Shown: positions 19,866 through 48,100 of the stretch, in pieces
Position numbering within the stretch: position 1 is the first letter of the stretch
Layout of the letters: the number at the start of each line of letters is the position of its first letter
NCBI GenBank assembly: GCA_024137785.1
Contig: JAHRHZ010000013.1
Span: 12,666,707-12,730,706, forward strand
Length of the DNA: 64,000 nt
Direction: 5' to 3'
Origin: Ginglymostoma cirratum
Taxonomy: Eukaryota
Notes under the pieces: generated by a model
What the model was told of the DNA's origin: nothing
Database searches by the model: none
What the model saw: only the letters and a program-made list of their open reading frames with translations
Position numbers and translations under genes: made by a program

Positions 19866-22088
19866 CACAAATGTCATAAATATGTTTTTTTTTGTCAATA
19901 ATCAGCATAATACTATTGGTAGAAAAGCATAGCAATCAGCTTTTGGTATTTTTTTATATAGTTGAATGATTGGCTAGTCAATTTGGTTCCTTTACTTTTG
20001 CTTCTCGTTTGAACAAAGTTAATATTTTATTCATCCCCAAGAGTTTTGATTTAAACTGCATCTTTTACAGGCAAATTTGTCAGTTGCTCTTGAGAGAATC
20101 CTGATTACTCTACAGCTTTCCATTGCTCTTGTGCACAGATTTCAAATAATTCACAATTCATGAGTCTGCTCCACATTTCTGTCTTCAAGGCTATGTATCT
20201 TCAGTTATATCTATGGAAAAACAAAAGCTTAGTCTCTCCAGGGGAATCTCTCTCCTACTTTTTCTTTTGTGCTGAACACAAAGGTACGTTCTCAAATATT
20301 GTAGACTCAATATCTTTTCTTTACTGTAGTGAATGCACTTATTCCCTTCTGAGTCACAGTTTAGTTTGATGGTTACCAACCATCACTTCAAATAGCATTA
20401 CCCCTTGTCCCTCCCTTGTCAAGTTATCTGCTCATTGAAGAAAATTGTAATCAATGAAAGCCTGTTTTCTCAATTATAGTTCAATTACTTTTTAAAAGAA
20501 AATTCTGTTTAGTGTTGGGGTTTGTGGACATTTAGTTATCTTGTATTATTCTTTAGATTGTGGTGTTCTCTGGTCTTTGTAAATGTTGGCTCTGAACATT
20601 ACTAAATATCAGTGATGGTTCAGTTATAAGTACCTGCCAGTTACTAAAATATTGAGTGAACTGCTGCTCACCAAGTACTGACTCATTTGTTTTTGCAGTC
20701 TAGTTGGACTAATTTCTTCAGACTGTGAACTCACATATTTAAGAAACCAGCACAGCAGTATCATTTTTAACATTTTTTTTCTGCCTCCTAAATCTTAGGA
20801 AAAGATTAAAAAAGTTTGTTCCTATTCATAAAATATAGAGAGTCAGCCCCTGGATTCTTAGGATGTTTTAAAACATTAAAATCCTTGTTTTTCATCAGCA
20901 TCATATTGGTTAACCAACGCCTTACATTTCCTCTGTATTTATTATAAGGTAAGTAGCTGATTGTATTAGCAACATTTTGTCATATTTCTGAGAAATCGGT
21001 AAATAATTATCTTAGTAGGCAGTCTTGCCTCAAATGAAATTAGCATTGAAATTGTTTCTTTTATATTACGTCCACAAACTGGATGCTTCCTCTAAAAATG
21101 TATTTCTCGTGAGGATTTTATGCCGAGTTATATTGGTTTACTTGTTTAATTATTTTTATTTAGTTATTGTCATAAATTGAAAGCAGCGTGTTAATATGAA
21201 GCTGCATGTTTGAACAATTGCTGCTATGAGGATGGTCCAACTTTGTGGTCCAGCTATTAATTTATGCCACAATCAACTGGGTAACGTAATAATTTATTTC
21301 AATTGTTTTTGATGCTGCCAAACATACAGTTTTCACTATGTCACATTTTGGAAAATGTAATTGGAAATTCAGTTAGCAATTAATATTGCGCTCAATCATT
21401 TTTGAACTGATTAAGATCCAGGTTATTAGTGCTGGGGGCATTCAATGTTGGCAGTAAACAATCCAAAGTCAGGTAAACACAATCCTGTATAAAGTAAGCA
21501 CAGCTCAACAAAATGGGTAGAGTTGTTTGATTTTTTTTATGCATTGAAACATCATAAATATGAGGCTGGGTATTGCTCAAAAATAATGAAGTATTAATGA
21601 CACCCACAAGAATGTACAAATTTACCAGAAATTTAATGGATCAAGAGATAAATTCTGTTCAGGTCTTTCTATTCAATATGTGCTTCTCTTCTGATTGTTT
21701 CATATTAATATTTTGCCCTTAACCTTTATATTACTTTCAAGAACCTGCTAGATTTGCATATTAATTACCTGTTAAACCTAGCATAGACACTTAACTCTGG
21801 TTTTTAGTGTCATAGTTTTTAATACCATGATAAACATTCATGCAATAAGATCAACTTATCTATTTCAAAAATTATCATTCCTTCAATTGGAAACGGCTTT
21901 TATACATTTAACTTTTTTCAAATTTTCATTACTTTTGCTCAACCTCTCTTTTTTCTCTATGTGCCTCCTAATTGATAGTTCCCTTGCCCTCTTTTTCTTT
22001 TTGTAAATCATTTGACTTTAATTCACCTTCCTGTTCTGTCCTAATCTATTTCCTTCCCAATTCTCAAATCCAATTTATTCAGGAGCCA

Positions 22089-22282
22089 AGGTAGACAGAC
22101 GGGAGGCTGGAAGAACACAGCAAGTCAGGCAGCATCAAAACGAAAAGAGAAGTCAATTTTTCAGGCATTACCGTTATACGAAATATTCACTTCTCCTTTC
22201 CTCCAGATGCTGCCCGGCTTGCTGTGTTCTTCCAGTCTCCTGTTTTTCTACCTTGGATGCTGGCATCTGCGTTTTTTTTTTC
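22089..22282 (+). mobile_element. Penelope-like fold-back mini-insertion
   Basis: 12-bp TSD ATTCAGGAGCCA (22077-22088 / 22283-22294). ~50-bp inverted arms (22086-22136 vs 22206-22256). GCATCTGC tail. Confidence 0.8.
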
Positions 22283-22529
22283 ATTCAGGAGCCACACCGG
22301 TCCCAGCATTAACTAAAGTCCCACGTACCCTGTTTTAGCTCCAGCATGAAAATAGAATGTAAGTAAAATGAATATGAAATGTGTTGATCATTGAATCAAA
22401 AGGCATTAAAGCAAGGTGAACACTACAGACACTTTATTTATCCTTTAAAATGATTTTTTATTAATATTTGGCATAAAAGGAAAAGAAAGATTTACATTTA
22501 TACTTGCTTTTCACAACCCCTCCTCCCTT

Positions 22530-23005
22530 TTCAGCATTCCAAAAGGTCTGTTCCCTCTACGACACCATAGTCCACATTACCATTGCTCACAGTACTAATT
22601 TCCATTTCCTTAACCCTTTGCTATGCAAATGCAACATTTATCTTTTTACTTTTAGACTTCCCAGCATCCAACAGCCAAAGCACTTCCTCCAAAAAAAAAT
22701 AGGAGGAATTTACTTGCACTTCTTTCAATTTAGTATACTGTATTCACTGCTCACGCTGTGGTCTGCCTTACACTGGGGGAGCAAACACACATTGAGTGTT
22801 CACATTGATGAACAACTCTGTTCAATCAGAAAGCATAATGCTGAGCTTGCCATTCTAATTCGCTGTCCCATTCCCACTTTGACCTTTGTCCTCAGCTTCC
22901 TACAGTGTTCCATTGAAAGCTAACAGAAACTGAAAGAACACTACCTCGTGTTTTTGTTAGATTCTTTACAATCTTCTGGCTCAACATCAAGTTCAACAGT
23001 TTGTA
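22530..23005 (+). mobile_element. Decayed Penelope-like element ORF 3' end (GIY-YIG endonuclease)
   Basis: From 22709 translates as FTCTSFNLVYCIHCSRCGLPYTG (PLE VY...Y[I/T]G motif with cysteines). Near 22930 translates as LKEHYLVFLLDSLQSSG, the typical PLE C-terminus. Frameshifted. Confidence 0.75.
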
Positions 23006-23411
23006 AAAAAGAACCTTGGCACTGCGGATGCTGAAAATCAGAGACAGAAACAGAAATCACTGGGAAATTGTTGTTTCTGATCTTAACTTCTGCCCCCATT
23101 TTATTGACATCAACTGTGTGTAATAATTTTGTTATTCCTTTAGTCCATGCTGTTTTCTATCCTATTTTGTTCCTACTTTTCTAATCAACCTGTTCAGAGA
23201 TGTTATTACACACCCCTGGAGCAGGTGGGACTTGAAGCGTCCTTTTGTAGAATGTGTCCTTAGTTCTTTCCTGATCTCTCATTTCCCTTCATCTGTGTTT
23301 ACTTAAAAGCTGTTACATCTATAACGCTGAGACCTTATGCTATCTCCTCTCTGACATCTCTCAACAGAATCTGTATGTTCTATCATAACCAAACAAACTT
23401 ATCCACTTTGA

Positions 23412-23608
23412 ACAAAAACAAAGTTGCTTGAGAAGTTCAGCAGGTCTGGCAGCATCTGTGAAGAAAAAAATCAGAGTTAACCTTTCAGGTCCGGTGACCC
23501 TTCCTCAGAACTCAGATTTTTTCTTCACAGATGCTGCCAGACCTGCTGAGCTTTTCCAGCAACTTTGTTTTTGTTCCTGATTTACAGCATCTGCAGTTCT
23601 TTTGGTTT
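23412..23608 (+). mobile_element. Penelope-like fold-back mini-insertion with hammerhead motif
   Basis: TSD TTATCCACTTTGA (23399-23411 / 23609-23621). ~62-bp inverted arms and a ~32-nt extra tail on the sense arm. Confidence 0.85.
23474..23513 (-). ncRNA. Minimal type I hammerhead ribozyme motif (degenerate stem III)
   Basis: Minus strand: GAGUU CUGAGGA A GGGUC-ACCG-GACCU GAAA GGUU AACUC. Stem I is GAGUU/AACUC and stem II is 5 bp. Confidence 0.6.
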
Positions 23609-26600
23609 TTATCCACTTTGATTTTGCCCAATTATTCAGAACCAATTTCTGTTGCAGTAGTGTTTAGCTTGCTTCTTTTTCTCAAAGTAAGAATTACTCC
23701 AGCAGATTCTTCTTTTAGTTTCATTCCAATAATGAGTATTGTTGATATAATAAGGTAACTGGTTTGGAAATGTTGTTGAGCCCAGGAACACAAGGAGGTT
23801 CAATTAACACACAAAGGCGAATGTGAAGCAACCTGAGTTAGCGATAACAGATGACCATTCAAATGCACTCTAAAGTCAGGATCAGTAGCCCTTTAGAATC
23901 ACTTCACCATTGTGTGACCAGCATTCATTATTTAAAAAGAATAAATTTTCAAACCGACTGTTAAAAAAAAATTGGTAGCCCTGTCACCTATAAATCAAAA
24001 GGCTGAGGGTTCCAGCCCAACTCTACAACACAAGCACATTGTCTTAGATGATACGGTAGCACAAAAATAAAGGACAGTCACATAGATGGAAGTATCATCC
24101 ATCAGCATGGATTTTAACCCAAGATCCTGTCTACTTGTCCTATTTCTACAGAAATTAAATGCCCTGTGGAGTCATTTAAGATGGAGGGAGCTCTCAAGCC
24201 CTCAAACAACACTATACGCAGATTAATTTCTTATTTATCTCATTGGCACTCTCGGGGATCCTGCTTTGTGTAAAATGGCTAACTACCCTGTTTGCCAGTA
24301 TAACATGATTTTCAGAAAATTTTTTTAATATTGAACTGTTTTGTAACGTTCGTGAGAGATATTTTTAGATGCAAACAAAAGTAAAAACTGTATTTCTGTT
24401 CAATATTTAATAGACCAGAAAACAATACCTTTCATGCAGCAAAGTGGACATCTCCATGCAGCATTCTAAGGTATTTGGGGGCATTGATCAGTCAGCTCCT
24501 TGCTTAGTCTGTTCCTTTATTGTCACCAAACCACAAAAGGCAACATGACTGATTCGAGTATAGCGAAGGAGTGCAATGAGTAAAGGTTAGAAAGCAGGAA
24601 GCAGTCCATGAAACAGTTAAGAAGACCCTGATCATAGAATGCAAAATATTGAATAGGTACAAATAAAAATACTCCTGGATATTCTTTCGAAGCAAGACCA
24701 GAAATTAACACCAAAAGGACTTAATTTCAATTGGTAAAAAGTAACTTAAAACATATTAGGATGAGTTTTATCTAATTATTGCTGATAGTGATAAAGAGAC
24801 CAAGAATAAATAAGATACTCAAACTCAGCTGGATTCTGTAATGGGACGGTAATGGCAAAACAGGCCTTTAACTTCCACAGCTTCTTACATTCTTCTGTGT
24901 AAATCATGATAGTGAGTGTTGTCACACTTTTCAGTGGTGGGAAATATTGCAATTCAGCATAATCTGTCCCCAACTAATGTTCCCATGCATGTTTTTCTTT
25001 GGAGAGCACAGAGTAACAATAAGCAGTGTAAAGGGCAGTCAATTTTCCTTTTTACTGGCAATGCTGCTGAGGCCAATTGAATGCTCCTAGTACGTTCTCA
25101 TCTTAGATCAGCTTATTCAGCACAGTGCAAGATCTACACTTAAAGCACATTCCTATTCTGGTGCATCAGATTCTTGCTGAATAACTTACAAGGTCACCTG
25201 AAGGGCAGTCCAGCCCTGAGAGCTTTGCTGACTGCAGCACAACGTGGTTCTGTCCTTCTGTAACCTGACAGCCAAAGGTACCCCGTAAGAAATGCATCGA
25301 GACCCTTCGAATTCACAGTACAATGACTACATGGGAAATGCCCAGTAGATTTAACCTTCCATGTGGCAGTTAGCCTGTGCTGAAACACTCTGGAAAATGT
25401 CTCCAGCTCTGAGTTGGAGTCAGACACCTCCAAGGATTCTGATCTACTAACTTGAAGAGGTAAAATCAATGCTAACTCCTGGGTAATTATGCAACTGGCA
25501 CCATCACCCACCCCATAAAGTAGACTATCCCTCCCAACTTGACTGGATCCGACCTCAGCACCCTACCCACACAGACACGCTGGCACCTCTCCAACCATTG
25601 GTAACCTACCTGTCTACCCAACTACTACTGTAACAGGTGCCACTGTGCCATCCTATGTAGCTGTCATGTCATCACCCTAACTAACTGACAATCTATGCAG
25701 CTGGCACCAAATTACAGTGGCCACCATGCCAGTCTGTCACCCTTCCAGCCATCTACCCTATCTTACTGGTGCTATATCCAGCTGTCATGCTATCACCCTA
25801 TACAGCTGACACCCTAACCAACCAGCACCTACTCCATTACCCATTTATCTCGCCCACCCCACCCACTAACAACTACACCTTCACCTACTCATTCATATAT
25901 TCATACAAATCCAATAAGAGCTTATGGGACATTGAAAGTTCATTTACTGCAACACATCAGCATGGCCTGTAAAATGCAGGTATGACCTGTCTCTCCTGGA
26001 GTTACCCAGTTTTTTTGCAGTTTTGGGAAAGAACCAACTTTGGAAGTCTGGCCTTATAAGACCAGCAGGTAAATGTGCAGTTAATTTCCTATGAATAGCA
26101 TCAATTGGAACAGTCCTGATAGTAATTGAAATGTTTAAGTCATTGTTTGAATTTCAATGTTTTTGCATTTATTTAGGGTAAAAATCATGGAGGATTATTC
26201 TAGTGAAGAAGGGAAGCCAGGAAGCTAATATAACATGCCTGTTTAACATGCCAAATATTTTCAAATCTAGGGTGGAATTTTCTCCTGCCTGTTGTGACAT
26301 GAGGAATAGTGAGAAAGGTGGGAGAGAACGATGGGAATTTATAAATCTGATTCTCATGGCTGAAAACAAATTCCTGATTTTCTCTTCAAGGTTTGAATTG
26401 TGAATTCAGAACCTTGAGCAGTGACTGCCTTATTTCTATACATTTCACTGAGAAGTAGATGCCTCAAATACCCAAGTTGTAGATCAGAGCAGGTAGCTGG
26501 GGCCTGCAACTCTCCAATGTTTTCCCCAGCCATCATCCAATTGCTTCTGCAGAATAATCTCCTTGTATGGTCTATAACCGTCATCCTTCTTGACATTTTG

Positions 26601-27750
26601 TCCGCCCAGCTTAGCACCAGTAAATCACCAGCCTCACTTCCTCAGCATCACAGCCCTTGGACCAACTCAGGCAACACTTCAACTCTTTGACCCTTTACTT
26701 TTGAGCTCAGGCACACCTCCAACGTAAATGCTTCTGCCACATGGTTTGCATGCAGGGACACACATGCATCTACAAAGGATGCATCTTATGGCTTTTAGCT
26801 TTGTTTCTCAGTGCTCACTCACTTTGCACTTATTTGGAGTTTGCTACTCTCTGTCCACGTCATATTGCTTTCTTAATGTGCACTCACTGACTTGCAGGTT
26901 GCCAGCTAGTGGCTAAGAAAGATTTCTTAGTGCACAGGGTCTCCAGTGCCTAGTCATAGGCTGCAATGCAAGCACTTTGTTTGAAGCAAATGGCAATCTG
27001 CGAAATTCAAAGAACCACATGGAATGATACAATACAGAAGAGGCACTTTGTCATCAAGTCTGTACTGACAAAAACTACTCTAAATCCACCCAAGTCCCAC
27101 TTCCCAACACTTGGCCTATGGCCTTGAATGTTCTGACATTTCTAGTGCTCATCCAAGTATTTTTTTAAAGGTTGTGAGGACTTACACCCCAACTACCCTC
27201 CCAGGCAGTGCATTCCAAAACCCATCAGCCACTGGGTGAAAAAGGTTTTCCTCAAATCCCCTAAAAGTCTTTTAGCTCTCACTTTAAAATTATACCCTCT
27301 TGTTAATGACCCTTCAACTAAGAGGAACACCTGCTATCTATCCAGTCCATGCCCAACATTATCCTATACATCTCAATCAGACCCTTCCTCAGCCTTCTCT
27401 AGTCCAAAGAAAACAACCCAAGCTTATCCAGCTACCAGCCCCTCTTAATGGGATTATAGTGGACTACACTAAATCAAGATGGTACTGTCCACAGTCAGTT
27501 AAAAGATTAAACTTATTCCAGTCCAAGGGACTGGTCATTGTCAGTCACAAACTTTATCCGACCAGACTCCAGACATTGGGCCATGGTGAATCTTGCATGT
27601 AGTGATTGTAACAAGGTAAGGCAGGTGGACCTCAGAGAATATGAGTTCCATGATTGGGACTGTTTACTCTGGTCCAATCAGGGAGCCCTGGCTGACAGAT
27701 ATAAACAGGAGTGTCAGAGAGGTTCTGTTCATACTGAGAGCTGGCTCTGA

Positions 27751-29679
27751 TTTTGATTCATTGCTGTCACATGTTCCCAGTGAAATATTTTGTTTTGAGT
27801 GCAGTATAGGCAGATCATAATATAGAAGGGCCTACAGATCATAGGGTGATTGAACAGAGTGAGGCATACAAAGTTTTAGCTGCACAGGAGGTGTGCAAAA
27901 GCAAAATCAACATTCCATTTGAAATTTAAGAGTTTCATTCAGCAGTCTAATAACAGCAGGGAAGAAGCTCTTCTTGAACCTGTTGGTGCATGTGTTTAAA
28001 TTTTCATATCTTTTACCTAACATAAGAGGTTGGAAGAGAATATAACTGGGGTGGCAGGGGTCTTTGATGATGTTGGGTGCCTTTCCATGGCAACGAGAAG
28101 TGTGAATGGAATCAATGGATGGAAAGTTGGCTTGAGTGATGGTATTGGCTGTATTCACAACTTCCTTTAGTTTCTTACGGTCCTGGGCAGAGCAGTTGCC
28201 ATTCCAAGCCATGATGCATCCACATAGAATGTTTCAATGGTGTATCTATGAAAGTTGGTGAGGGTCCTTATGGATGTGCCAAATTTCCTTAGCTTACTAA
28301 GGAAGAAGAGGCATTGTGTGCATTCTTGACTGTCGCATCTACATAGGTGGTCCAGGGCAGATTGTTGATTAAAGTCACTACTAGGAATTTGACGCTCTTG
28401 ACCCTCTCCACCTCAGCTCCATTGATGTAAATAGGGGTGTGTCCTCCTCATTTCTTCCTGAAGTCGATGATCAGCTGTTTAGTTTTGCTGACATTGAGAG
28501 AGAGATTGTTATCTTTGCACCACAACACCAAGCATTCTATCTCCTCCCCGTATTCTGACTCGTCATTGTTTGATATCCGGCCTACAACAATGGTGTTGTC
28601 AGCAAACTTATAAATGGAGTTTGGATGAAATTTGGGCACATAGTCATGTGTGTACAGGGAGTACAGAAAGGGGCTGAGTACACATTCTTGTGCAGCAATG
28701 GTGTTGACGATTATCGTGGAAGAGATGCTGTTGTCTATCTTGACTGATGGTAGTTTATGGGTCAGGAAGTTGAGGATCCAGTTGCAGAGGGTGAAGCAGA
28801 GACCTAAGTCATGGAGTTTGGAAATGAGTTTGTTTGGGATTACAGAGTTGGTAGGGCAGAGCTGTAGTTGATAGGTAGAAACCTGACGTAGCCATCCTTA
28901 TCCAGATGCTCCAGGGATGAGTATAGCGTTTGGGAAATGGCATCTAATATAGAGCTAATAGGTACTGCAGATGCTGGAGAATTCGAGATAACAAGGTGTG
29001 GAGCTGGATGAACACAGCAGGCCAAGCAGCATCATAGGAGCAGGAAAGCTTGATGCTGCTTGGCCTGCTGTGTTCATCCAGTTCCATACCTTTATATCTC
29101 TAACGTAGAGCTGTTGTGCTGGTAGGCAAATTGCAAGGGATTGAGGCAGGCTGAGAGGCTAGAATTGATGTGGTGCATGACCAACCTCTCAAAGCACTTC
29201 ATGATTATAGAGGTCAGAGTCGTTGAGGCATGTTGCATGTGCTTTCTTTTGTACTGGGATGATGGTGATCTTAGAATCATAGAGTCACAGAGACATACAC
29301 CATGGAAACAGACTCTTTTTTCCAAATCATCCATGCCGACCAGAACATCCTCTTCTTGGAACAGGTGGGAACTTCAGATTGTACCAAGGAGCTGTAGAAG
29401 ATGTCAGCAAAAACACCCTCCCAGCTGATCCACACAGGATATGAGTGCACGGCTGGAGACTTCATCTGGGCCAGTTGCTTTCCTTGGGTTCACTCTCATA
29501 GAGGCCGATCTGACGTCTGCAGCAGTAGCTGTGAGGGAACAGGTGCTTCCCGGGCTGTCGGGGCAAGTGATACTGTTCCACTGGCATTCTACTCTAACCA
29601 AGCATAAAAAGCATTGAGCAGATCAGGGATGGATGTGTTTTTGTTTGCTGTTCTGTTCTGCTTCATTTTGTATCCCATA
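27751..29679 (-). mobile_element. Decayed Rex1/Babar-type LINE 3' half
   Basis: ORF fragments [64 protein letters not shown] and TNRFKKSFFPAVIRLLN. Confidence 0.85.
28957..29098 (-). mobile_element. Penelope-like fold-back mini-insertion inside a Rex1-type RT
   Basis: 14-bp TSD TCTAATATAGAGCT / TCTAACGTAGAGCT (28943-28956 / 29099-29112, differing by a CpG decay). Inverted arms GCTGGATGAACACAGCAGGCCAAGCAGCATCA. Confidence 0.85.
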
Positions 29680-30934
29680 TGAGGAAGCTAGATCAATGTC
29701 AAGGACTTTCCATGCATAAATAAAGGGTGACTTGTTGATGGGATACCGGCCTGTATGGAGCTATTTCACTGTTGGTCAAATATTACCAGGCCAGGGATTA
29801 CAGGTACATCGGTCAGGGTGTTGTGAGACATCAGTCTGGCGGTGGGCAATGGTGAGCTGAGCTGTTGAGCCAATTCAGTGGGATGAGCCAAAGATGGCAA
29901 GTACTTCCATCTCGCTGGTCACAAGAGTCTGCAGAAATCCACCCAACAGCCCAGTTGTAGAACTATTGAGGTGAAGAGTGGAAAATTCACTTCAAGTCAT
30001 AGGAGACCAGGCACCATGAATCCGACCTGACAAACGCTGCAACTGAAAAGGGGAAGATTACATCCACAGTCACTATTGTAATGTCCAAACCAATTGATGA
30101 GACACCAATAGCAAAACACTGCCTTTGCCCTGGTTGGTCCCATATACCATCCTCGATAAGATAAATAGCATGACACTTAAGCTTTTTAAGCGAGGTCCTC
30201 AGACAATTCTGATGAAAAAATGTTATGAGTTGTCGCTGACATCTTGTAAATCTGTGTTAGAAAGTTCATGGATGAGATATAAGAATTATTTTCAAACACA
30301 ATAGTTTGGATCTTTTGATTCATAGATAGTCATTGCAGCAACGCACTCTGAAAGATGCCAAATGGGATCACTCAGGAGTTTGAACACATCAACTGTCCAA
30401 GAATTATCCAGGAAATTGAAATTTCTGATCAACAATTACCCTTTGTCTGGAGCCTTCGAAAAATTCTTTAACTCTGAGAGAGAGTTAGATGGTTCCAACT
30501 CAATTACCTGGTATTAGCCAGGAAATATTGAGGGACCACAATCTGCTCTAATTCCTGGGTAATTATAAAACTGACACCACCCCTCCTTGAGCTGACTTCC
30601 CAACATTCTGACCCGACAACCACCAAAACATACCTCACTGCCCTCCGACCAGACACAACACTCACCTCCAATTCAACACATCTCAACATATAACACCAAC
30701 ACCAACTTCACCACATGACTCCCTTAACCCACCCTATCCCCTCGAACTGTCAACCTATGCCCTCACCAAACTACTGACATATCCCCAAAATTACTGCCAC
30801 CCTCCTCATCCACTTACCTTCCAGCTTACTGCCCACCCAAGTGCTGCCTTAACCCTTTACCCACTTACTTGCCAATCTATCCCTTCATCTAAATGCCACC
30901 CTACACCCTCAACTAACTCTTACAGTGATTTTCC

Positions 30935-31240
30935 ATAGAAACATAGAAGATAGGAGCAGAAAGAGGCCACTTGGCCCTTTGAGCCTGCTCCACCATTCCT
31001 CACGATCATGGCTGATCATCCAACCCGGTAGCCTAATCCTGTTTTGATCCTATTTGCCCCAAGTACTACATCTAGCTGCCTCTTGAATACATTCAATGCT
31101 TTCGCATTAACTACTTCCTGTGATAATGAATTCCACATGCTCACCACTCTTTGGGTGAAGAAATATCTCCTCATCTCTGTCCTAAATGGTCTACCCCAAA
31201 TCCTCAAATTGTGACCTCTGGTTCTGGACACACCCACATT
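30935..31240 (-). mobile_element. CR1 LINE 3' end
   Basis: ORF SRTRGHNLRIWGRPFRTEMRRYFFTQRVVSMWNSL plus a (TTCTATG)n-type tail. Confidence 0.85.
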
Positions 31241-36397: not shown

Positions 36398-36570
36398 CAG
36401 TAGATGCAGGTACAGTTACAACATTTAAAACATTTGGACAGGTTCGTGATTAGGAAAGGTTTAGAGGGATATGGGCCAAATGCAGGCAAATGGGACTAGT
36501 TTAGTTTGGTAAACTTGGACAGCAGGGACAGGTTGGACCAAAGGGTCTGTTTCTGTACTGTATGACTCTA
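36398..36570 (+). mobile_element. CR1 3' tail fragment
   Basis: Similar to 34415-34590 (GATATGGGCCA...CTGTATGACTCTA). Confidence 0.7.
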
Positions 36571-37817
36571 TAAGATGAAAACAGGAGAAAATGACATTCA
36601 TTCATGAGAGAAAATGGCTGTATTGGGACAACTGAGAGGTACAGATTCATAAAGTTCAACTAAAACCTTCATGCTATTATAAAGCATTCTACAATCCTCG
36701 TCTGCATTACACTTGCAATATAAGTCTCTCCATCAAGCATAATCCCAGAAAGAAGCAATAGCAGACTCCTGGAATGGAGAGTCTCATTTGTACATTGTGC
36801 AAACCTGGTGCTGTGTCAAACTGATTTTAAGAAGTGCCCACAGGAGTGTCACTTTGGCCAATTTCACACTTTTTATGCTCGTGTAGAACTGAAACAGAAT
36901 GAATTCACCCAGTGCACTCTCAAAGCATTTACATTTTAACTGCAGGAAAATGATATCTTCACAAATGTCTGCCGATTTGTGCAAAGCATTGCTTTACCAA
37001 TGAGACCCAAAGATTCATTTCCACATAGTCTATAATTCAAATTGCCCCATTCTAGATATCAGTTTGCAAAAGCGACTGTAAGAAATCGGTTTGTAATGTT
37101 ACCTCATATAAAGCTTGACAATAGGAAGCACAAGTTCCATAATAAATTTACATCCATTTTTTGCTTGTTACACAGAAGTGTGGCAGTTTGCTGTATGAAT
37201 GAGCTAATGTCAGTGGAATATCTTTCCTCATCTGTACCTGCCTCATGTTTATATCCCCGCAAACTTTGCAATTTGCTGTCAATAAGCTTGCCCTCAAAAG
37301 GCCTGACAGCCAGTCTCTCCTGAAGAATCACAAACAACCTCCACCATCCCAATCCCACTTACTTGATGTGTATATTGTTTCAAATAGAAAACACTTGCTG
37401 GAACATAAGAAGTAAGAGCAGGAGCGGACTATTTTGCCCCTTGACCCTGCTCTGCCTTTCATTTAGATCATGCTTGGCCTCCTATCTCTTTTGACAGTAT
37501 TCCCATCTCCCTAGACTTCCTTAGCATTCAAAAATCCACCAGTCTCTGAGTTTAATCTACTTAATGACTGAGCATCACATTCCTCTGGGATCAGAATTCT
37601 ATAAATTCAAAACCCATCGAGTGAAGAAATGTACCTGAGTCCCAAAGAGCCAACCTATTATTCTGAGACAGTGACCTCTAATTCTGGAGGTCACATCCTC
37701 TTGGTACCTAATGTGTCCCCCCACTGGAAGAAAAATGAAACTTTAAGTGAAGTCAGAGATAACAAGCATGGGGCTGGATGAACACAGCAGGTCAAGCAGC
37801 ATCATAGGAGCAGGAAA

Positions 37818-37851
37818 CTTGACGTTTCGGGCCTAAACCCTTCATCAGAAG
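37818..37851 (-). ncRNA. Minimal type I hammerhead ribozyme motif (intact core)
   Basis: Minus strand: CUU CUGAUGA A GGGU-UUAG-GCCC GAAA CGUC AAG. Canonical CUGAUGA/GAAA core, palindromic ACGU at stem III and a GUC cleavage triplet, as in PLE minimal hammerheads. Confidence 0.7.
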
Positions 37852-37860
37852 GGTTTAGGC

Positions 37861-38260
37861 NNNNNNNNNNNNNNNNNNNNNNNNNNNNNNNNNNNNNNNN
37901 NNNNNNNNNNNNNNNNNNNNNNNNNNNNNNNNNNNNNNNNNNNNNNNNNNNNNNNNNNNNNNNNNNNNNNNNNNNNNNNNNNNNNNNNNNNNNNNNNNNN
38001 NNNNNNNNNNNNNNNNNNNNNNNNNNNNNNNNNNNNNNNNNNNNNNNNNNNNNNNNNNNNNNNNNNNNNNNNNNNNNNNNNNNNNNNNNNNNNNNNNNNN
38101 NNNNNNNNNNNNNNNNNNNNNNNNNNNNNNNNNNNNNNNNNNNNNNNNNNNNNNNNNNNNNNNNNNNNNNNNNNNNNNNNNNNNNNNNNNNNNNNNNNNN
38201 NNNNNNNNNNNNNNNNNNNNNNNNNNNNNNNNNNNNNNNNNNNNNNNNNNNNNNNNNNNN
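37861..38260. other. Assembly gap (400 N)
   Basis: Run of N characters. Confidence 1.
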
Positions 38261-38834
38261 GATGCTGCTTGACCTGCTGTGTTCATCCAGCCCCATGCTT
38301 GTTATCTCGGATTCTCCAGCATCTGCAGTACCTTTTATCTCTTTAAGTGAAGTCATCTGTCATTCTGAGAAACTCTGGGGTGTACAGAACATGTCTATGC
38401 AATCTCTTCTCCTAGAACAGCCTCTTCATTCCAGGAATCAGTCCAGAACTTCCTCTTCCCCTTCTAAGATACAAATATCCTTCCTTAAAAACAAGGAGAC
38501 ATAAACTGCACAAAGTATTGTAGCTCTGATCTCACCAAGGCCTTCTATAATTGGAGGAAGATGTTCTTATTCCTGTACCGCAATCCCTCTGTAATAAAGA
38601 CTGGCATTGCATTTGCTTTCCCAATTGCTTGCTACATCTGCGTATTATTATGATTCATGTGCACGAATACAAATCACACTGAGTACTAATATTTCGCTGC
38701 CTCTCATCATAGAAAACTTTTCTGCTTCTCCGTTTTTCTTACCATGTGGGTAGTTTCAAAAAAGCCACTATTATATATCCCACTTGCCATATTTTTCCCC
38801 ATTCACTTAATCTGTCTAAATTATTTAACAATAA

Positions 38835-39330
38835 TGTCAGAAAATGTTGGAAATGCTCAGTGGATTTGGCATCATAGTCAGAATGGAAAACAGAATTGAC
38901 ATTTCAGGTTTGTGACATTTCATTAGGTCTGGGAAAAGTTAAAAATATAATATCTTTGAGCAAGTGATAAGGGGAAACATGGGTAAAAGGGCTCTGTGAT
39001 AAAGTGGAAGACATATGATGTTGAATGGCAACGCCAAGGGGAATGGAAATAAGACAAGTAAAGGAAGAAGAGATGTGTTGAGAGGAGGTGTGAATGGTAG
39101 GATCTTGATTAACTGCTGTCCAAATGCAAAGTAAAGGATGGAAAGAAAGGACCAAGTAAAAGCCAAAATTAGCAAACGTAAGAAGTGAAGTGGAGGCAGA
39201 GATTATAACATAACATTGTTGATCTCCTCTATGCATTCTGCGGATGATAACTGCCCAGTTGAAACATGAAATACTTCCCCCAGTTTGACTGGGCTTCATT
39301 GAAACACTGAAGCATTCCAAGAGCAGAATG
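38835..39330 (-). mobile_element. Older Penelope-like pLTR/3' fragment
   Basis: Degenerate match to the same pLTR body (GAAAATGTTGGAAATGCTCAG...AATTGACATTTCAGG) plus a purine-rich 3' UTR. Confidence 0.45.
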
Positions 39331-42300
39331 GCCGTTACATGGAGATATTAGGCAGAATTTCTCAGACCTTGAACTTTGTGGACAATAGCAAGAAAGTTGG
39401 AATAATCATATGAGATGGCCAGCAAGGAGCTTATCAATGTCAAAAGCCAGAAGCCTATTTTCCAAGCATGTGTTTCAAAACAAGACGAGATTCTTCCTCA
39501 TGAACAGTGAGATGCCAATCTACACGCATTAGCACATACGAGCAATTCATTGTTGCCTACTTTCACTTCATTAATGTACAGTTTCACATTCTCCCAACCA
39601 CTAGATAGAAACTGGATGGCAAAAATTCTTGATGTGAACATCAAAGCAGTTACCTGACAACTTCAGTTTGCCACTTTCCTATCCAGAATTTCATCTTGGA
39701 TACCAAGGCACCAACATCTCGGAGCACACTTCATGGACAGTGACTCTGTACAGCTCTCCATCCTTGGCATCTAACACATGCCTGCCCCATTGCATCATCA
39801 TGGTACATCTCCAATCCATTTCTAACACGCTTCTGTACTGAAATGCCACACTTTCACACATCGCTGCCTCTCATTGCAATGCTGCTCAAGGAGATTTTGC
39901 ATTCAGAGACATGCACCCATCTCATGGATTCAACTAGGATGCATCTCAGGGCTGCTTGTTCGTTCATTCTCTTAGCACTCACTCATTCAGTGCCTACTTT
40001 GATGCTCACAGCATCCCTTCCTTGCCTTTTTGCACTTTGCCCCCAGGGTGAAATGCCATAGTTTTTTTGATCATCTATCCTTAATCAAAGGAATGTGTGA
40101 ATTCCCTGGATGGCTGTAAATTATCCGTATTTAACTAGGTTTTTTGTTCAATACTCAAGACTGACGTCAGCTCAGAATGCCAATAGCTGCATGATTGCAG
40201 TGGTTACTTTAATAGTCTGTGACCAAATTTTAGATTATTTTATTGACTGAAACTTCATAATATATTAGAACATGGCAGAGGGGACAGTGTAATTATTCGG
40301 ATAGACAGTTCAGACTGTGACTCCCAAAGGCTGTGTTGCCTGCTGAGTGCTAGGGTTAATGACGTATCTTGGGCCAGAGAAGAAGTTTGAATGGAAAGGA
40401 AACATCTATTTGTTATGGTCCATATAGATAATAATAATGCCATAGGCAGAACTAGGAAAGAAGTTTTGCTGAGAGTATACAGGCACATAGGAGCTAAACT
40501 TAAAAAGTAAAACCACAAAATTGATGACCTATAGATTTTTACCAAGTCTACAAGCAAATTGGCAAATGGTAAATAAGATCAGAGAGCTAAAAACATGGTT
40601 TAAAGTTTGGTGTGAGAGAAATGTGTTCTGATTCATGAAGCAGTGGTGACAGTACTGAGATTTAATGGTGCGGCACTGTTGCCTTGCTCTTTGCCTGAAA
40701 CAAGGCAGGGCAAATTGACCAAGTCTGGGCACTGCATACTCAAGGGTATTTAGTATCTGTGAAGGAGTGAAAGAAAAGGATTTAGATGGCTCTGTCAATA
40801 ACTGATGACATCATGGGTTCAGTTCCTGCATGGGTGAGGTTTCCATGAACGATTCTCCTTCTCAAACTCTCCTCTCATCAGAGGAATTCTGACCCTCAGG
40901 TTAAACCACTATAATTTGTCTTTCTACTGAGTTTTATGGTCTTATAAGACTATGGCAACTTTACTTCTTTAATAGATGAGATCAGAATAATAATGAGAAT
41001 ATACCTGGGCTTAAAGACCAAGATGTTAAATTGTTTGGGTGAAGATAAGAAATAGAAAGGGAAAGATGTCACTTAGTTGAATGAGTTTATCAACCTCTAA
41101 CAGCATAGTTACATTGGCAGTGTATGAATCAAGAAATAATTGTAATGCTTGGAAGAATGGTGCTGCAATAATTGCCATTAAGAGCCAATTGTATTGCTGT
41201 GGATCTGGAGTTACATGTAGGCCAGACTAAATAAGAATGGTAGAATTCCTTCCCTAAAGGATAATAGTACACCAGGTGCAGTTTTACAATAATGGTTACA
41301 GTTAGGCAAGCTTTCAGGTCCAGATTTTTATTAGGTTGAATTTGGATGTCACCATCTGCCCTGGTGGGATTCAAATTTAATTCACAGAACATTAGACTGG
41401 AGTTCTGGGTTGTTAGCCTAGTGATATTATCACATCGCTTCCAGTTACGAATGGTGCAGTCAGAGAGGTATGGCTGTCCTCAGACTGCACACACATCACA
41501 ACATTTTTTTTTCCCTTTCAAATCAATTTGTATGGACATGATGTGACACACCTCTAAGTTTGGTGGCACTTGAATCCAAGCCTCCTTGCCCAGAGATAAG
41601 AACACGACCACAGTACCACAATAAACATCATCACATAATGCTACAGTATTGAAAAAAGAGGAATTAATTCAGATGACAAATGGAATGTTAATCTTCATTG
41701 AAAGGGGAGGTATAAAAGTAGGGAAATATTGCCTCACCTGTTCGGAGTATTGATGAGAGCACACCTACAGTAGTCAGCACATTTTTGGTCTTTTATTTAA
41801 GGAGGAATACACTTTTGCAGCACCTTTTTGAATGCTTTTTGGAAACTAAGTCCACCAAACCTACTAATTCCCTACTTTCTATTCTATTAGGTACACATTC
41901 AAAAACTTCTAAATTTCCTAACATGTTCTGGTTGCCTGTCATTTTGTCTCTAGTAATAGATTCTGACATTTTCCTACAGCTGATGTCAAATTTACTGGCT
42001 TGTAGTATGCTCTTTACTCTCCCAGTCCTTTCTCAATTAGGAGAATAATATTTCTACCTTCCAATGCATGACAACCATTTGAGAGTCTGGGGAATTCTGG
42101 AAGATTGAAACCAATGTAACATCTATCTTTATGAAGTTTTAGAGCATACAGCATCAGGTTTGTAGAATATGTTAGTATTTTGTTCTATTAGGTTTATCTA
42201 GGATTAATTCTTTGCTAATGCCAATGAGTTTGCTCACTTTCACTTGGCACTTTGTTCCTCACTACTTCCAGAATGCTATTTTTTAATGTCAACTACAACG

Positions 42301-42551
42301 AAGGCAGTGTTGTTTCTTTATTCCACCCTCCAATGTCACCTATTTCTATCTCTAAGGGATTCATGCTTACTTTTGCTAATCTGCTCATTTTCACATACCT
42401 TTTAGAGGCTTTTGTACATGTTTTTATATTTCCTGTTAGTTTACCAAACTATTCTATTGCTTTTCCTTTACTAATTTCTTTATCATTATTTGGTTAAATT
42501 TCAAAATCCTCTTAATATTCAAGTTGACTATTCCTCTTAACAAAATTATCA

Positions 42552-43245
42552 GAACATAGCATAAGAAATAGGAGCAAGAGGAGGCAATTCAGCCCTCAAG
42601 CCTGTTCCACCATGGCTGACCTTATCTTGGCCTCAACTCTCCTTTTTTGCCTGCCCTCCATACCCCTTCATCCTATTCCTAATTAAAAATCTGTCTAACG
42701 CCTCCTTAAATTTATTCAATATCCCAGCATCCAACACACACTACGATACTGAATTCCACAGATTCAGCACCCTTTAAGAGAAGTAACTTCTTCTCATTTC
42801 TGAAGAAGAGTCTCGACTCAAAACGTCAGCTTTCCTGCTCCTCTGATGCTGCTTGGCCTGCTGTGTTCATCCAGCCCCACACCTTGTTATGTCCTCATCT
42901 CTGTTTTAAACCTGCCATCCCTTACCCTAAAGCTGTGGCTTCTCATTCTAGATTGTCCCACGTGAGGAAACATCCCTTCTATGTCAACTTTGTCCATCTC
43001 CTTTAGAATCGCATATGCCTCAGTTAGGTCGCTTCTCATTCTTCTAAATGATTGATTGTATAAGCCTAAATTGCTCAATCTCTGTTCTTGAGACAAACTG
43101 CACATCTCTGGAATCAATCTTAGTGGATCTCCTCCGAATCATACAACTACATCCTTCCCCAAATAAAGGAACCAAAATTGTATGCAATAATCCAGGTACA
43201 GGCTCATTAATGCCTTTACAGTTACTATATATAAGCCTCTTACTT
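42552..43245 (-). mobile_element. CR1 3' fragment
   Basis: ORF EQRLSNLGLYNQSFRRMRSDLTEAYAILK...SRMRSHSFRVRDGRFKTEMR plus a CR1 tail. Confidence 0.8.
42800..42891 (+). mobile_element. Penelope-like pLTR fragment starting with a decayed hammerhead core
   Basis: CTGAAGA A GAGTC-TC-GACTC AAAA CGTC followed by the family body GATGCTGCTTGGCCTGCTGTGTTCATCCAG. Degenerate TSD TTCTCATTTC / TCCTCATCTC. Sits in a CR1 3' end. Confidence 0.75.
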
Positions 43246-44330
43246 TAATCTCTTTTATTTAATAACCACAATTTGACCAATTTTCATTTAGGATTAGTAT
43301 AATCATTGCTAGTTTGTAAGTAAGCAAGTTACGTTTACCATCGCTAATGTACTATAATTGTTGATGATCTTCTTTCTCAACCTGCATCAGTCAACTCACC
43401 CCTCAAATGTAGATCATTTATTTTGTTCCAATTCTTATTGCATTCAATAAGAAATTCAATCATATCGATACTGTTTAAGAAACTAGTTTATGACAAGGCT
43501 ATAAATTAGCCTTCTCTAAATGCACAGAACTCGCTCCAAAATAAACTGCTCTCTTATTTGTTTCTTGACATACTGAACCAGGAAATGATCCCAAACACAT
43601 TCCACTAACTTATACCCTAGAAAATTAAATTACTGAAAATTTGGTCTGCTCAGTGTTTTTGAAGATTTAATTACCCCATAATTTCTGCATTTAACTTTTT
43701 ACATGCAGCTTTAATTTAATCAAAAACAAGTCATATTTATGTTGCACCTTTGACGTAATAAAATATCCCAAGATATTATTCAGGAGTGTCATAGACCAAC
43801 ATTGACACCAAGCCCCTTAAGGAGAAATTGGAGCAGATGACCAAAACTTTTGTCAAAGAGGTAGCTTTAAATAATTCCCCAGAAAAAGGAAAACGAGGTA
43901 GAAATATGAGTAGGTTTAGAAGGGAAAGTCCAGAATAAAGAGAGTAGGCATCTTAAGCTATAACCACCAATGTTGTATTTCTGGGAAACAAGGGATGCAC
44001 AAGCAGCCGAAATTAGAGGAGAGCAGATATCTCAGATTACTGTGAAGCTGGAGAATGTTACAAAGGCAGGAAAGGTGAAAAAAAGGAAGGATTTAAAAGC
44101 AAGGTTGAGAACTTTAAAATGAGACAGTTGTCTAACCAGGATCAAGTGGTAGGTCAGCAGGCACAGCCGATAGGTGAACAGGAAATGGAGGAAGTTGGCA
44201 AGGTGCACATTGGAATAGTCAATTTTTTGCATAACAAAGCCAGGGATGGGTGCATCAGCAGCTGGCAAGCTGTGCTAGGAACCAAATCAGGCAATATTAC
44301 TGACATAGAAATAGTTGGTCAAAGTGATGG

Positions 44331-44506
44331 AACTTCTCCTCATTTCTGAAGAAGGGTCTCGACCCAAAACATCAGCTTTTCTGCTCCTCTGATGCTGCTT
44401 GGCCTGCTGTGTTCATCCAGCTCTACACCTTGTTATCTCCTCATCTCTGTTTTAAACCTGCCATCCCTTACCCTAAAGCTATGGCTTCTCTTTCTAGATT
44501 GTCCCA
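44331..44506 (+). repeat. 176-bp local copy of 42785-42960 (CR1 plus PLE junction)
   Basis: Aligns without gaps by eye with ~10 substitutions. Includes the hammerhead-like motif at 44346-44373. Confidence 0.9.
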
Positions 44507-44983
44507 GATTGTTCTAGATTGGAGCAGACGTAATCCAAAGTTCATTTCAGGCAAGTATAGTACCAAGGCAGTGAACAGTTTGGCTCAGTCTCAGTTTTCC
44601 TGGGAAATTGATGGTGTTGGTGACTAGTGAACAATGTTTGAATTAGGGACCAAAAATAAGATTTCAGTTTGCTCAATATTTAATTATAGGAGATTTTTGC
44701 TTGTTAAGCCCTGAATGGCAGCCAAAGACTGAATATTTGGAGAAAGCGATCAAGCATTCTGGTGGTGAGGTACAGTTGGGTGCATATATATAATTGTATA
44801 TATGGATGCTGTATTTTTGGATTGCATTACCAATAATAGCAACTGTATTATTACTGTCTTTATTATAATAAAACATGCCAAAGTGTTTCTTTGGACCAAT
44901 ATAAAACAAAATATGACACCAATCAAGATAAGGCAACATTAGAGTGAATGACCAAAATCTTTGACAAGAGATAGATTTTCAAT

Positions 44984-45113
44984 TAAAACAAAGAACTGCG
45001 GATGTTGGAACACTGAAACATAAATAAAAATTGCTGAAGAAGTTCAGCAGGCTTGAGAACATTTTTGGAGAGGAAACAGAGTTAACATTTTGAGTCCAGT
45101 GACCCTTCTTCAG
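44984..45113 (-). mobile_element. Penelope-like pLTR fragment with decayed hammerhead core
   Basis: Minus strand CTGAAGA A GGGTC-ACTG-GACTC AAAA TGTT AACTCTG, ending in a GCAGTTCTTTG tail. Approximate TSD AGATAGATTTT / AGACAGATTTT. Confidence 0.7.
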
Positions 45114-48100
45114 ACAGATTTTAATGGCTTTCTTAAAGGAGGAAAGCACGGAAGAGAGGAGGAGAGACTTGGGAAGTGAATTCCAGCATGGAATCCAGCA
45201 GCTAAACATCTTGATCACCTCAACGAGACTGGGAGACGAAGAGTAGCAAGGGGCCAAGGACAGATCCTTGGAGAATACCAGACAGTGTGTGAGTGGGAAA
45301 CTGCAGCACTGGAGGTTATTCTTTGACTGTAAATTATGCGTAGAAAATAATAGAACCAGACATGTGCATTTTCAAACAGCTGGACAACCTGCAGAAGTGT
45401 CTGAGGTGAGTAGTATGGTCACCCCCATGTCAAAGAATGTAAATAGGTCGAGAGGGATGAGGTTTGCTAGTTTACCTTTGTCATACTCATTCAAGATATC
45501 ATTTACACCTTTCGTTCCACTTCTGTGATAGACAAGGAAGACTGATTGCGTGATTTCCTTATTTATACACTGCTTAACACTTCAAATACTATTAGGGGCA
45601 CATAAGCTACTCCCATTATTGTTTTCTTCCCCTTGTTGTTTATTAGATGCACCTAACTGGATTCTAAATCTTGACTTCCTGATCCAGGATCCACACTCTC
45701 AACAGATATTAGCCAATATTTTATTATCAAAACTACACCGTCTCCACTCTTTTCCATTTTCCATTTTTGTTTGAAGAGTAGGTATTCTGGAATGTTTAAT
45801 TCTGACTGGCCACTCAGCAATCACATCTGCAAAATGGTTTTTAGATCAAATCTATATATTTGTACGTGTGCTATGAACTCATCTATTTTGTAATGTGAAC
45901 TTTATGTATTCACATCTTTAATTTGTCAGCTTTTCCCTTACGTCCCCATCATTGCTAAAGCTCACAAAAGTCATCAAACATCTGTTCAATTCTCCAGCCC
46001 TTCCAACCACACGACTTGTTTTTTAAATCACATTGTTATTTTGTTTCTCTGCTCTATGTCTTCAACAACTCTTTCGTTGCTTATTAATTTTACATTTTCC
46101 TGAGTGCTCCCACATCTTTCCTTCATAATGAAAACAACCTATTGTGGTTTTATTCCAGATTTCCATTATACTGAGAAACCAAGTTAGTTACTTTCTCATA
46201 GTTTCAGGCCATGTGAACCATTATAAAGAAGTGTAGCTTCTCTCAGGTCACTCTTGAAGTCCAGTCTAAATACTGGTTGGCATCAAGATCTAGGAAAGCT
46301 ATTCAAGGAACCTTGTGCTTGGGTTAAACACTCATACACAGATAAAAGAAAAAAAATCTTTAGGATGTATGCCATTTACATGCAAACTATACATCATATT
46401 CAAGGTTCTGTTTGCTATAAGACCTCATCTTATTTAAAGGGGCACAGATTGGTTCCAATGATAAAATTTAAGACACTACTGAGATCTATTTCATAAATCC
46501 TGTGTTATAAAACTTTTGAATAAATTTTACAGATTGTCCTATGATTTTAAAATCAGCTGATTAGGTGTTTTATTGTATGTTAAATATTAGCATATGGCAA
46601 ATGAAGTTATTGCATTTGTTGTACCTAAATGGCATTCAAATTGTCTCAAATCGAAGGTCAGATGGATTTTTTTAAAAATAGGGCTTTTTTTTAACGACAG
46701 AACAGCAGGTCTGAAAAGTAGAAAATTAAGTCGACAAATGACAGTACAATTCAACATGCCAGAATCTTTCTTCTATGCAAGTACCATTGATCTGCACAAG
46801 AGCTTATTACACCACCAATACCTGTTCTTATTTTCTCCCTTCTGGTCCTGTATACACACAATTCTGCGACACACTGAAGAGGAGGAAAACGTCTTTTATT
46901 TTCGAGCAATAATTTTACAAAAAAAGGCAAAACAAGTGACTTTGATGTTATAGCTACTAAACGAGTCAGATTCCAAGTGTGAGCCGCATAACTGCGGTAC
47001 AGGCGCCAAACTGCAGCGAAACCGGTAGTTTACAAAGTGAAAACAAATAAGATCTCTCTTCTGAGTACAACGATCTACCGCAACCCAAAGCGAAACTTCC
47101 ACTGCTTTTGTTTAGCAATCAAGTCCCTGAACCGAAGACAGCACCCAAACAGGACACTAGAAGGACAATTATATAAGAATGATCAGACTACCTGGTCGCT
47201 TGGAGCCCATTCATAATTACCAGTGGCCTTACATTTTGAAACGCATATTTTTAAAATTAAATCTGCAGTTTTTGTGAGTGTATATTTATAGGTTTTTTTC
47301 CAAAGCACAATGTTGAGACATATAGAAAGCTGACATAAATAATATTTAAATGACAACTTTAATCAGGTTTGCACTTGTTATACATTTGTTGACAGGTCAT
47401 TAGTGGCATGTGTAATTTTCAAGAATGAAGCCAGCCTGATCTTCGTAATATTTTGATATTGTATTTTTATAAAATATTTTGAATTTTGTCGATTTGCTTA
47501 TTTAGTTATTCCACGTTTTGGCGGAAGAGTGCCGCATACAAGACCGAATTGGGCAGAATTATCAGCAGATTGCATCTCTGAGAAATTGGTATGTGCTGAA
47601 TATGGTGTATTTACTGGACAAGGTCGAATGACTTCCTTCTGCGGTGTAACCATTCCATGGTGCCGTCCACTGAAAGAGAGTGTGTACTATTCAAGCTGAA
47701 TCTCACCAAAAGTTTCTCATATTGTCGCGCGGTGATTCCAGCCTGAAATGTCGAACGTTTTCAAGTCCCGTTCTTTGATTTGCCTCCAGCTAACAAAGCG
47801 ACTATTGTTAAAAGGATGGGAATAACAAGTCCCTACGTTCGTCTATATTTATAATAAACTGTTTAGCACATTGCTGTTACCTCTCTCAAAAATTACAAAA
47901 ATTACAAACTTGAAGGAGAGTTGTACGATTGTAGAAAAGCTTTGATCATGAGATGTTCCTATCCTAAAGCTGCGACCATTGCTCTGTCATTAAAAGTGCA
48001 GACTGTGGATAAACTGAGAAGCAGCTCCAACGAAACGGTTCCCAGGTGTAGAATTTTACCGCAAGAATAGTTGATTTCCCGAGCCATTTCGCAATAAGAA

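Follow-up and report, generated by a model that had tools for sequence, protein, structure and literature searches.

The window analysed here, a stretch of 64,000 nt of Ginglymostoma cirratum to which all positions below refer, represents the 3' flank of a shark HoxA cluster, and its repeat-rich DNA carries, 8-32 kb downstream of HoxA1, a set of very short insertions with minimal hammerhead ribozyme motifs, which we consider, with good though not full confidence, to be dead-on-arrival, extremely 5'-truncated 3'-end insertions of autonomous shark Penelope-like elements (PLEs). Two homeobox genes are present, HoxA1 (53561-54999, minus strand), the nearer to the insertions, and HoxA2 (59353-61007, minus strand), with the HOTAIRM1 conserved region between them (57631-57842; 119 bits versus a gathering score of 37 in Rfam). 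The first exon of HoxA1 shares 93% identity with Hox-A1a of Chiloscyllium punctatum, the values for Heterodontus and Callorhinchus being 86% and 79%, in agreement with the shark host assumed in an earlier description of this DNA (the original prediction), in which the insertions were proposed to form a new class of ribozyme-bearing elements. All seven loci cited there were found to be present and mutually homologous, and three further PLE pieces were recognized (22522-23330, 23008-23070, and 38826-39340); about ten pieces lie within 23 kb, four of them in 1.5 kb (22089-23608).

Four of the insertions, named here by their first positions (22089, 23412, 28957, and 37756), are fold-backs. They are the best 4 of the 15 inverted repeats in the window, with ungapped arms of 83, 60, 53, and 51 nt at 82-98% identity, the next inverted repeat measuring 28 nt at 71%. 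The 12-15 bp target-site duplications (TSDs) and the extra tail on the sense arm that had been ascribed to these elements were both recovered: the TSDs are exact in three (12, 13, and 15 bp), and in the 28957 element the TSD of 14 bp includes two CpG-type mismatches (7 exact), while an exact TSD-like match of at least 11 was seen in 0 of 1980 random flank pairs; the tails, on the sense arm in all four, are of 28, 32, 28, and 32 nt. The oldest fold-back (22089..22282) consists of a tail-less inverted arm (22089-22178) with its sense on the minus strand and a degenerate core, followed by a plus-strand sense arm that starts from about G12 (22179; general hammerhead numbering is used throughout) and ends with the 28 nt tail; the arms match over 83 nt at 82%, and the TSD is 22077-22088/22283-22294. 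In the second (23412..23608; arms 60 nt, 95%; TSD 23399-23411/23609-23621, 13 exact) the tail-less inverted arm (23412-23508) carries a core on the minus strand (C3 = 23508, N17 = 23479) in which G12 is kept and 15.2 is mutated, the junction microhomology (23509-23513) coincides with helix I, and the sense arm, with a 32 nt tail, begins at the predicted cleavage site. The third (28957..29098; arms 53 nt, 91%; TSD 28943-28956/29099-29112) is core-less, possessing a sense arm with a 28 nt tail on the minus strand, whose start is no more than about 3 nt from the predicted cleavage site (about 29052), and a tail-less inverted arm of 47 nt. The youngest (37756..38340; arms 51 nt, 98%; TSD 37741-37755/38341-38355, 15 exact) encodes the sole fully canonical core, on the minus strand of its tail-less arm (37756-37848; C3 = 37848, predicted cut between 37821 and 37820), with a 3 nt junction microhomology (37849-37851), a sense arm that begins inside the core and a 32 nt tail. 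Arm identities of 82 to 98% imply that the insertions are spread over a long period.

The sole assembly gap of the window (37861-38260, 400 N) falls within this youngest fold-back, which, if it is a simple fold-back, would, from the arm alignment, miss only 27 nt. The size of about 90-200 bp originally given does not apply to the 37756 element as assembled, at 37756-38340 including the 400 N. The gap, along with a contig end that forms a perfect palindrome of 13 nt, raises the question of whether the fold-backs are assembly artefacts, but as this concerns one of the four, the other three being gap-free, and as the arms are 2-18% different, the tails asymmetric and the structures closed by TSDs, we find this explanation barely credible.

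The remaining three of the seven loci are solo copies. One (42800..42893, plus strand) is tail-less and extends from C3 to the first of the two 3' sites described below, with G12 changed to A and with a short TSD (5 exact, 10 with one mismatch) that overlaps the first core bases. Its duplicate (44346..44439, plus strand; G12 to A, 16.2 changed; TSD 9 exact, 14 with one mismatch) sits in a local duplication of 185 bp (42776-42960/44322-44506) that is 93% identical, in otherwise unrelated surroundings, with mismatches at 7 of 94 positions in the element and 6 of 91 in the flank. The third (44984..45113, minus strand) is tail-bearing, extending over 130 nt from C3 (45113) to the tail end, again with G12 changed to A. 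Solo TSDs are weak, with 5, 9, and, in the last copy (44973-44979/45116-45122), 7 exact positions. The earlier division into about three subfamilies appears plausible, with 59-65% identity among the core-bearing arms of 37756, 23412, and 22089; the distance between C3 and the cut also varies among subfamilies, being 28 or 30 nt.

The sequences that had been quoted for five cores and five stems II were all confirmed, and they follow the minimal type I hammerhead pattern, with a bulge after A9, the G10.1-C11.1 pair and a palindromic ACGU replacing helix III. A relaxed descriptor of this pattern produced seven matches, five of which belong to the family; the null had a mean of 0.79 and, in 200 simulations, a maximum of 4, so that chance does not account for the five motifs. 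Its other two matches, at 891 and 20898, were rejected as family cores, being outside the family and at chance level, and none of the 14 matches in an Rfam scan of the window was to a hammerhead family. The cores themselves are in poor condition. CpG dinucleotides are prone to mutational decay, and the CpG at 11.1/12 has been lost in five of six independent core-bearing loci, through three C to T and two G to A changes, the youngest alone retaining it. The general base of the ribozyme, G12 (PMC6155905), is present in two of the five cores, with A in the other three; every canonical position is retained in one (37848, minus strand), and the other four are altered in the core or in the palindrome, the latter being broken in the 23508 core. 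In the intact 37848 core, the adjoining 13 bp inversion is predicted to disrupt folding, the probability of the G10.1-C11.1 pair being ~3e-12 in the fold-back context and 0.59 without it. The statement that stem II differs in sequence while staying paired is correct as to the pairing (100%); as to compensation, the four pairs counted show one double change, between local duplicates, along with three G-U wobbles, and one supposedly still-paired stem II is a product of CpG decay. Covariation across helices I and II of five sequences was not significant, being equalled by 160 of 500 shuffles. With CpG decay in five of six loci and covariation not above that of shuffles, the inserted cores look like neutral relics. 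Between the 42776 and 44322 duplicates, the stem II palindrome carries a double change of G-C to A-T, and template-switch correction, not RNA selection, could be its origin. A monomeric 5' type I hammerhead would, we infer, sever its own core and so be unable to transmit it.

The ancestry of these units is indicated most directly by an old, longer, 5'-truncated copy of ~515 nt (38826..39340, minus strand), in which the C-terminus of the PLE endonuclease (39330-39238), an untranslated region (UTR) of ~300 nt, a decayed hammerhead (C3 = 38926), and an arm with a tail-less 3' end are joined. On this comparison the tiny units correspond to the terminal 47-130 nt of an ordinary PLE, although the direct link is modest. 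The endonuclease portion was matched by a protein profile with an independent E-value (iE) of 0.0064, the reversed control being empty, and the arm aligns with the 23412 arm with a score of 65 versus 21.6 +/- 3.9 (0 of 300 shuffles); the copy, which was recovered, as was the piece at 23008, by a profile of arms (E 0.17), is also the best non-training match of the covariance model (E 0.045), 18 matches of that model with E > 0.4 being taken as noise. A second coding remnant, the clearer one (22522..23005, plus strand), is a decayed, frameshifted C-terminal part of a PLE open reading frame (ORF), comprising the linker and the GIY-YIG endonuclease, with its 3' UTR apparently resuming at 23071 and continuing to about 23330. 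This remnant, identified only through phmmer followed by a second hop to longer relatives, was matched with E 5e-9, with E to 5e-10 in tblastn against proteins possessing both reverse transcriptase (RT) and GIY-YIG domains (best in the reversed-window control, 0.046), and with iE of 2e-9 and 8e-9 by a protein profile; among its matches is a Rhincodon typus protein (P0124) with RVT_1 and GIY-YIG domains. The endonuclease profile was built from seven of nine fetched relatives, P0123 and P0128 being left out; P0123 (E 5e-4) was rejected as a PLE relative for its resemblance to an unrelated repeat protein. Pfam recognized no families in three frames of the 22600-23009 remnant and neither RT nor GIY-YIG in P0121-P0123, a word-based protein search with the best 46 residues of the remnant scored neither of two candidates, and a search of ESM Atlas with the remnant returned no usable match. 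Between the two long remnants, BLASTN and TBLASTX detected nothing significant, and a gapped local alignment scored 108 versus 72.9 +/- 9.0 (0 of 300 simple shuffles), which, for pyrimidine-rich sequence, is moderate support. The Rhincodon typus relative has a C-x4-C-x2-C linker, at a place where the window copy is frameshifted, and a CX2-5CxxC linker between RT and endonuclease is, beside RT phylogeny, a mark of Neptune (PMC8557442); the parents were probably PLEs of Neptune type. The PLE derivation in the original prediction is upheld, both by the arm found downstream of the endonuclease end at 38826-39340 and by the GIY-YIG remnant at 22522-23005. A further 3' end, tail-bearing, of 63 nt and without a core (23008..23070, minus strand; E 8e-5 and E 7e-4, reversed control empty), is placed exactly at the ORF/UTR junction of the older PLE (22522-23330). 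No TSD was found for this piece (best 4 exact) or for the 38826-39340 copy.

The units have two fixed 3' ends, ~30 nt apart, at 93-99 nt and at about 125-130 nt downstream of the hammerhead C3. The first, tail-less site ends all four inverted arms as well as the 42800, 44346, and 38826 copies, and the tail that extends to the second is present on all four sense arms and in the 44984 and 23008 copies. The arms, 47-104 nt long with the tail on one side, meet at junctions that differ in four of four fold-backs, including the two that are 88-100% identical: one is in helix I (23509-23513), one at a 3 nt match in the core (37849-37851), one near G12 (the 22089 element), and in the 28957 element about the cut site is joined to position 47. 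Junction microhomology is clear in two of the fold-backs and plausible in the other two. The arm start and the tail form a 7 bp helix in all three subfamilies (22089, 23412, 28957, 37756, and 44984), with 94% of the cells paired; its covariation, one double change, was not significant (102 of 500 shuffles as good). As it brackets the first 3' end, this helix may be a protein-binding or RT-start structure. In three subfamilies an ATG within it begins a frame that passes through the tail without a stop codon (22204-22282, 23530-23608, and 38262-38340, plus strand), possibly the start of the PLE ORF, although frames so short are common.

The TSD, the tail and the inverted copy all support the proposal that insertion is performed by the RT/GIY-YIG protein of a PLE. 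In the scenario we propose, this protein would bind its own RNA just downstream of the hammerhead and nick both target strands, 12-15 bp apart; reverse transcription would then be primed at the two internal sites ~30 nt apart (~95 and ~125-130 nt past C3), and both cDNAs would stop early, in or beside the hammerhead, for a cause that we can only infer. If both cDNAs were kept, they would be joined head to head via 2-5 nt of microhomology, producing the order TSD, tail-less inverted arm, sense arm, tail, TSD, and if a single one was kept, a solo copy would result, with or without the tail. The hammerhead would be a passenger from the pseudo-long terminal repeat (pseudo-LTR), subject from then on to neutral decay. 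Homology to the PLE 3' end, the two 3' ends, the TSDs, the unique junctions, and the decay of the cores are what the window contributes to this scenario; initiation at two internal sites and extension of both strands come from the literature, from in vitro work on an anole PLE. The step in which two cDNAs are joined we hold to be somewhat better than an even bet. A different origin of the inversion, in which one cDNA primes its own second arm from helix I or from some other palindrome and the tail is gained or lost in resolution by the endonuclease, was proposed in publications (PMC3846280; PMC8557442), and the 23412 junction, being exactly helix I, would let the 3' end of a cDNA pair with itself. 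However, in four of four fold-backs just one arm has the tail, and a fold-back copy of a tail-less template would need some additional step to acquire one; each of the two types is also seen as a solo copy, and in the anole both target strands are extended, from two points of initiation, by the PLE protein (PMC11167929). We therefore see self-priming as possible, with the odds against it.

As to the 5' ends, 11 arm ends were counted, the 44346 duplicate and the two long copies being excluded; these were read by eye from alignments, and one is degenerate. Here, and in the basis of the joining step and of the parentage, are the points that speak against our reading of the units as truncated PLE by-products. 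The 5' ends are not smooth, with 5 of 11 within 3 nt of C3, unlike plain random truncation (p 0.013 for a uniform null of 100 positions and 0.002 for one of 170, the uniform null being generous). Seven of 10 arms, the gapped one excluded, are 90-104 nt long (p about 0.001), and among independent loci short copies outnumber long ones, 7 versus 2. The joining step is drawn from four junctions, one of them beside the assembly gap; the parent is identified via fragments. Finally, the 38826 copy, whose link to coding sequence is modest (iE 0.0064; E 0.47 with tblastn alone, not above control), ties just one of the three subfamilies directly, the rest being connected via arm homology.

The clustering of 5' ends and lengths, as well as the local density of short copies, would also be expected of a dedicated non-autonomous family, like a short interspersed element (SINE), a miniature inverted-repeat transposable element (MITE) or a retrozyme, with masters of 125-200 nt that are mobilised by a PLE in trans and that need their hammerhead. 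In support, pseudo-LTRs suffice for mobilisation in trans (PMC3846280), and animal retrozymes are pseudo-LTR-derived and are found in one chondrichthyan genome (bioRxiv 10.64898/2026.07.22.740005). As to the arguments opposing such a family, the junctions are unique in four of four fold-backs, none of 10 Tandem Repeats Finder (TRF) arrays involves the unit, and A and B boxes are absent from the five units scanned on both strands with one mismatch allowed (37756 and 44346 not included). In addition, four of five cores are mutated, the intact one is predicted to misfold in its context, covariation is not significant, and the longer, ordinary truncated copy at 38826 shares the same 3' site. We consider a dedicated family unlikely, and the retrozyme- or MITE-like class of the original prediction does not agree with the unique junctions, the lack of tandem copies and the neutral-like CpG decay of the cores. 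A smooth distribution of lengths had been named as what would speak against that class; the lengths are in fact peaked, but an autonomous PLE should leave by-products with a length peak as well, and so this is not decisive.

The clustering could be a footprint of the ribozyme in vivo, although a preferred cDNA length of ~95 nt fits equally well; since the tail and the core each measure about 30 nt, the position of a 5' end cannot be separated from the length of the arm. The 130 nt copy at 44984, which has the tail start and yet ends at C3, favours position over length, and 2 of the 11 arm ends are at the predicted cleavage site. For Poseidon_Ac (PAc), the PLE of Anolis carolinensis, RNA sequencing (RNA-seq) detected no ends at the cut site and cleavage was dispensable for insertion (PMC11167929), which argues against a cleavage footprint. 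Another candidate cause, by analogy, is an RNA boundary near C3, since helix I of the Drosophila virilis PLE begins where the intron ends (PMC4209133), with transcription starting a short way upstream (PMC2377424). We offer only tentatively, and against our own expectation, the hypothesis that the shark pseudo-LTR hammerhead sets the cDNA ends, through self-cleaved templates or stops at helix I just ahead of C3, with helix I complementarity joining the two cDNAs into a fold-back, which at 23412 would have restored, on the minus strand, a type I hammerhead with a closing helix of ~60 bp, although the transcript of that strand is predicted to be inactive; if true, a genome-wide breakpoint map would present a fossil record of hammerhead action in PLE retrotransposition in vivo.

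The position of the hairpins 8-32 kb downstream of HoxA1 and their predicted stability (-90 to -115 kcal/mol; z = -16 for 23412) might also suggest that they are retained by the host as regulators, either as a source of small RNA or as elements of the HoxA flank. Stability, however, follows from the inversion itself, all eight Rfam microRNA matches over the hairpins are generic and below the gathering score, and mismatches between the arms accumulate, making this a very improbable explanation. A role as a source of double-stranded or small RNA is, from the predicted fold of 23412, physically possible. Other repeats of the window include LINE (long interspersed element) and SINE remnants at 28448-28897 and 27907-28233 (minus strand), 6042-6479 (plus strand), and 15580-16184 (minus strand), of which the first encodes RVT_1 (E 5.5e-8) and the others were called by eye, and an unrelated dispersed repeat pair (34415-34589/36401-36573) of 175 nt at 75% identity.

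Overall, the feature is real and its proposed ancestry is right, but its reading as a new class is overdrawn: the inverted truncated copy, the tail, the TSD, solo repeats, dispersed hammerheads and opposite-strand pairs are all published for PLEs, and the only unusual trait is the tendency to stop at the ribozyme. The role of PLE hammerheads in vivo and the origin of the inverted pseudo-LTR have both been called open (PMC8557442; PMC11167929), and the miniature insertions, which bring the two junctions, the TSD and the two points of RT initiation together in 200 bp, represent a natural data set on these questions. With about ten PLE pieces in these 23 kb, a shark genome may hold enough copies to map cDNA stops at base resolution. 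As such hairpins mimic microRNA precursors (the eight sub-threshold Rfam matches) and break assemblies, they should be masked as PLEs.

Comparison with known systems points in the same direction. Like MITEs (PMC8969392), the shark insertions are short and non-coding, with inverted repeats and TSDs; unlike MITEs, they have asymmetric, variable, retroelement-derived arms, unique junctions, and no common terminal inverted repeat for a transposase. With non-LTR retrozymes (PMC7229834; bioRxiv 10.64898/2026.07.22.740005) they share non-coding content, a type I hammerhead, pseudo-LTR ancestry, long TSDs, and a PLE as the likely mobiliser. Retrozymes, however, are head-to-tail tandems with active ribozymes and circular RNA, while the shark copies are head-to-head or solo and, by sequence, mostly inactive; no head-to-tail units were found among the 10 TRF arrays, although the 400-N gap could conceal one at a single locus. 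The supplement of the latter source lists the retrozyme families of one chondrichthyan, which may bear on novelty.

The hammerheads themselves resemble those of PLEs (PMC4209133) in the CUGANGA motif, the base bulged after A9, G10.1-C11.1, the short helix I, the palindromic 15.1-16.1, and the occurrence as dispersed singles; metazoan minimal hammerheads are mostly single motifs, probably of truncated PLEs, with opposite-strand pairs 100-700 bp apart. Helix II is of 4-5 bp in the shark and of 7-8 bp in the schistosome motifs, sharks being unnamed among the taxa in the accessible part of that source. An expansion of PLEs has been reported for the whale shark (10.1101/443036). As in PAc, two 3' ends are split by a tail, which in the anole corresponds to the interval separating the two points of RT initiation, located 111-118 nt into the ORF, with both strands cut and extended; PAc also cuts ORF/UTR junctions in vitro, and the shark piece at 23008 occupies such a site (PMC11167929). 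The shark units differ from PAc in the Neptune-type C-x4-C-x2-C linker of their relative and in that two of the 11 arm ends map to the cleavage site, versus none in PAc RNA-seq.

The closest resemblance is to the endonuclease-bearing (EN+) PLEs (Neptune, Poseidon, and Penelope), from which the shark insertions differ in being just 63-197 nt long and ORF-less and in the clustering of their 5' ends at the hammerhead. In the literature covered, which did not extend to Repbase, Dfam or most subscription journals, no account of such shark miniatures or of hammerhead-clustered breakpoints was found. Their TSDs, of 12-15 bp, are longer than the 8-10 bp of rotifer PLE insertions, which also have junction palindromes (PMC3846280), and the 28 nt tails of two fold-backs are slightly below the published 30-40 bp of the tail that, with an inverted 5'-truncated copy, accompanies PLE insertions (PMC8557442). 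Shared with EN+ PLEs are the TSD, the head-to-head, tail-less inverted copy and the one-sided tail of ~30 nt (PMC3846280; PMC8557442; PMC2377424), as well as microhomology or a palindrome at the junction, a hammerhead near the 3' end, solo terminal repeats, and assembly gaps at the inversions.

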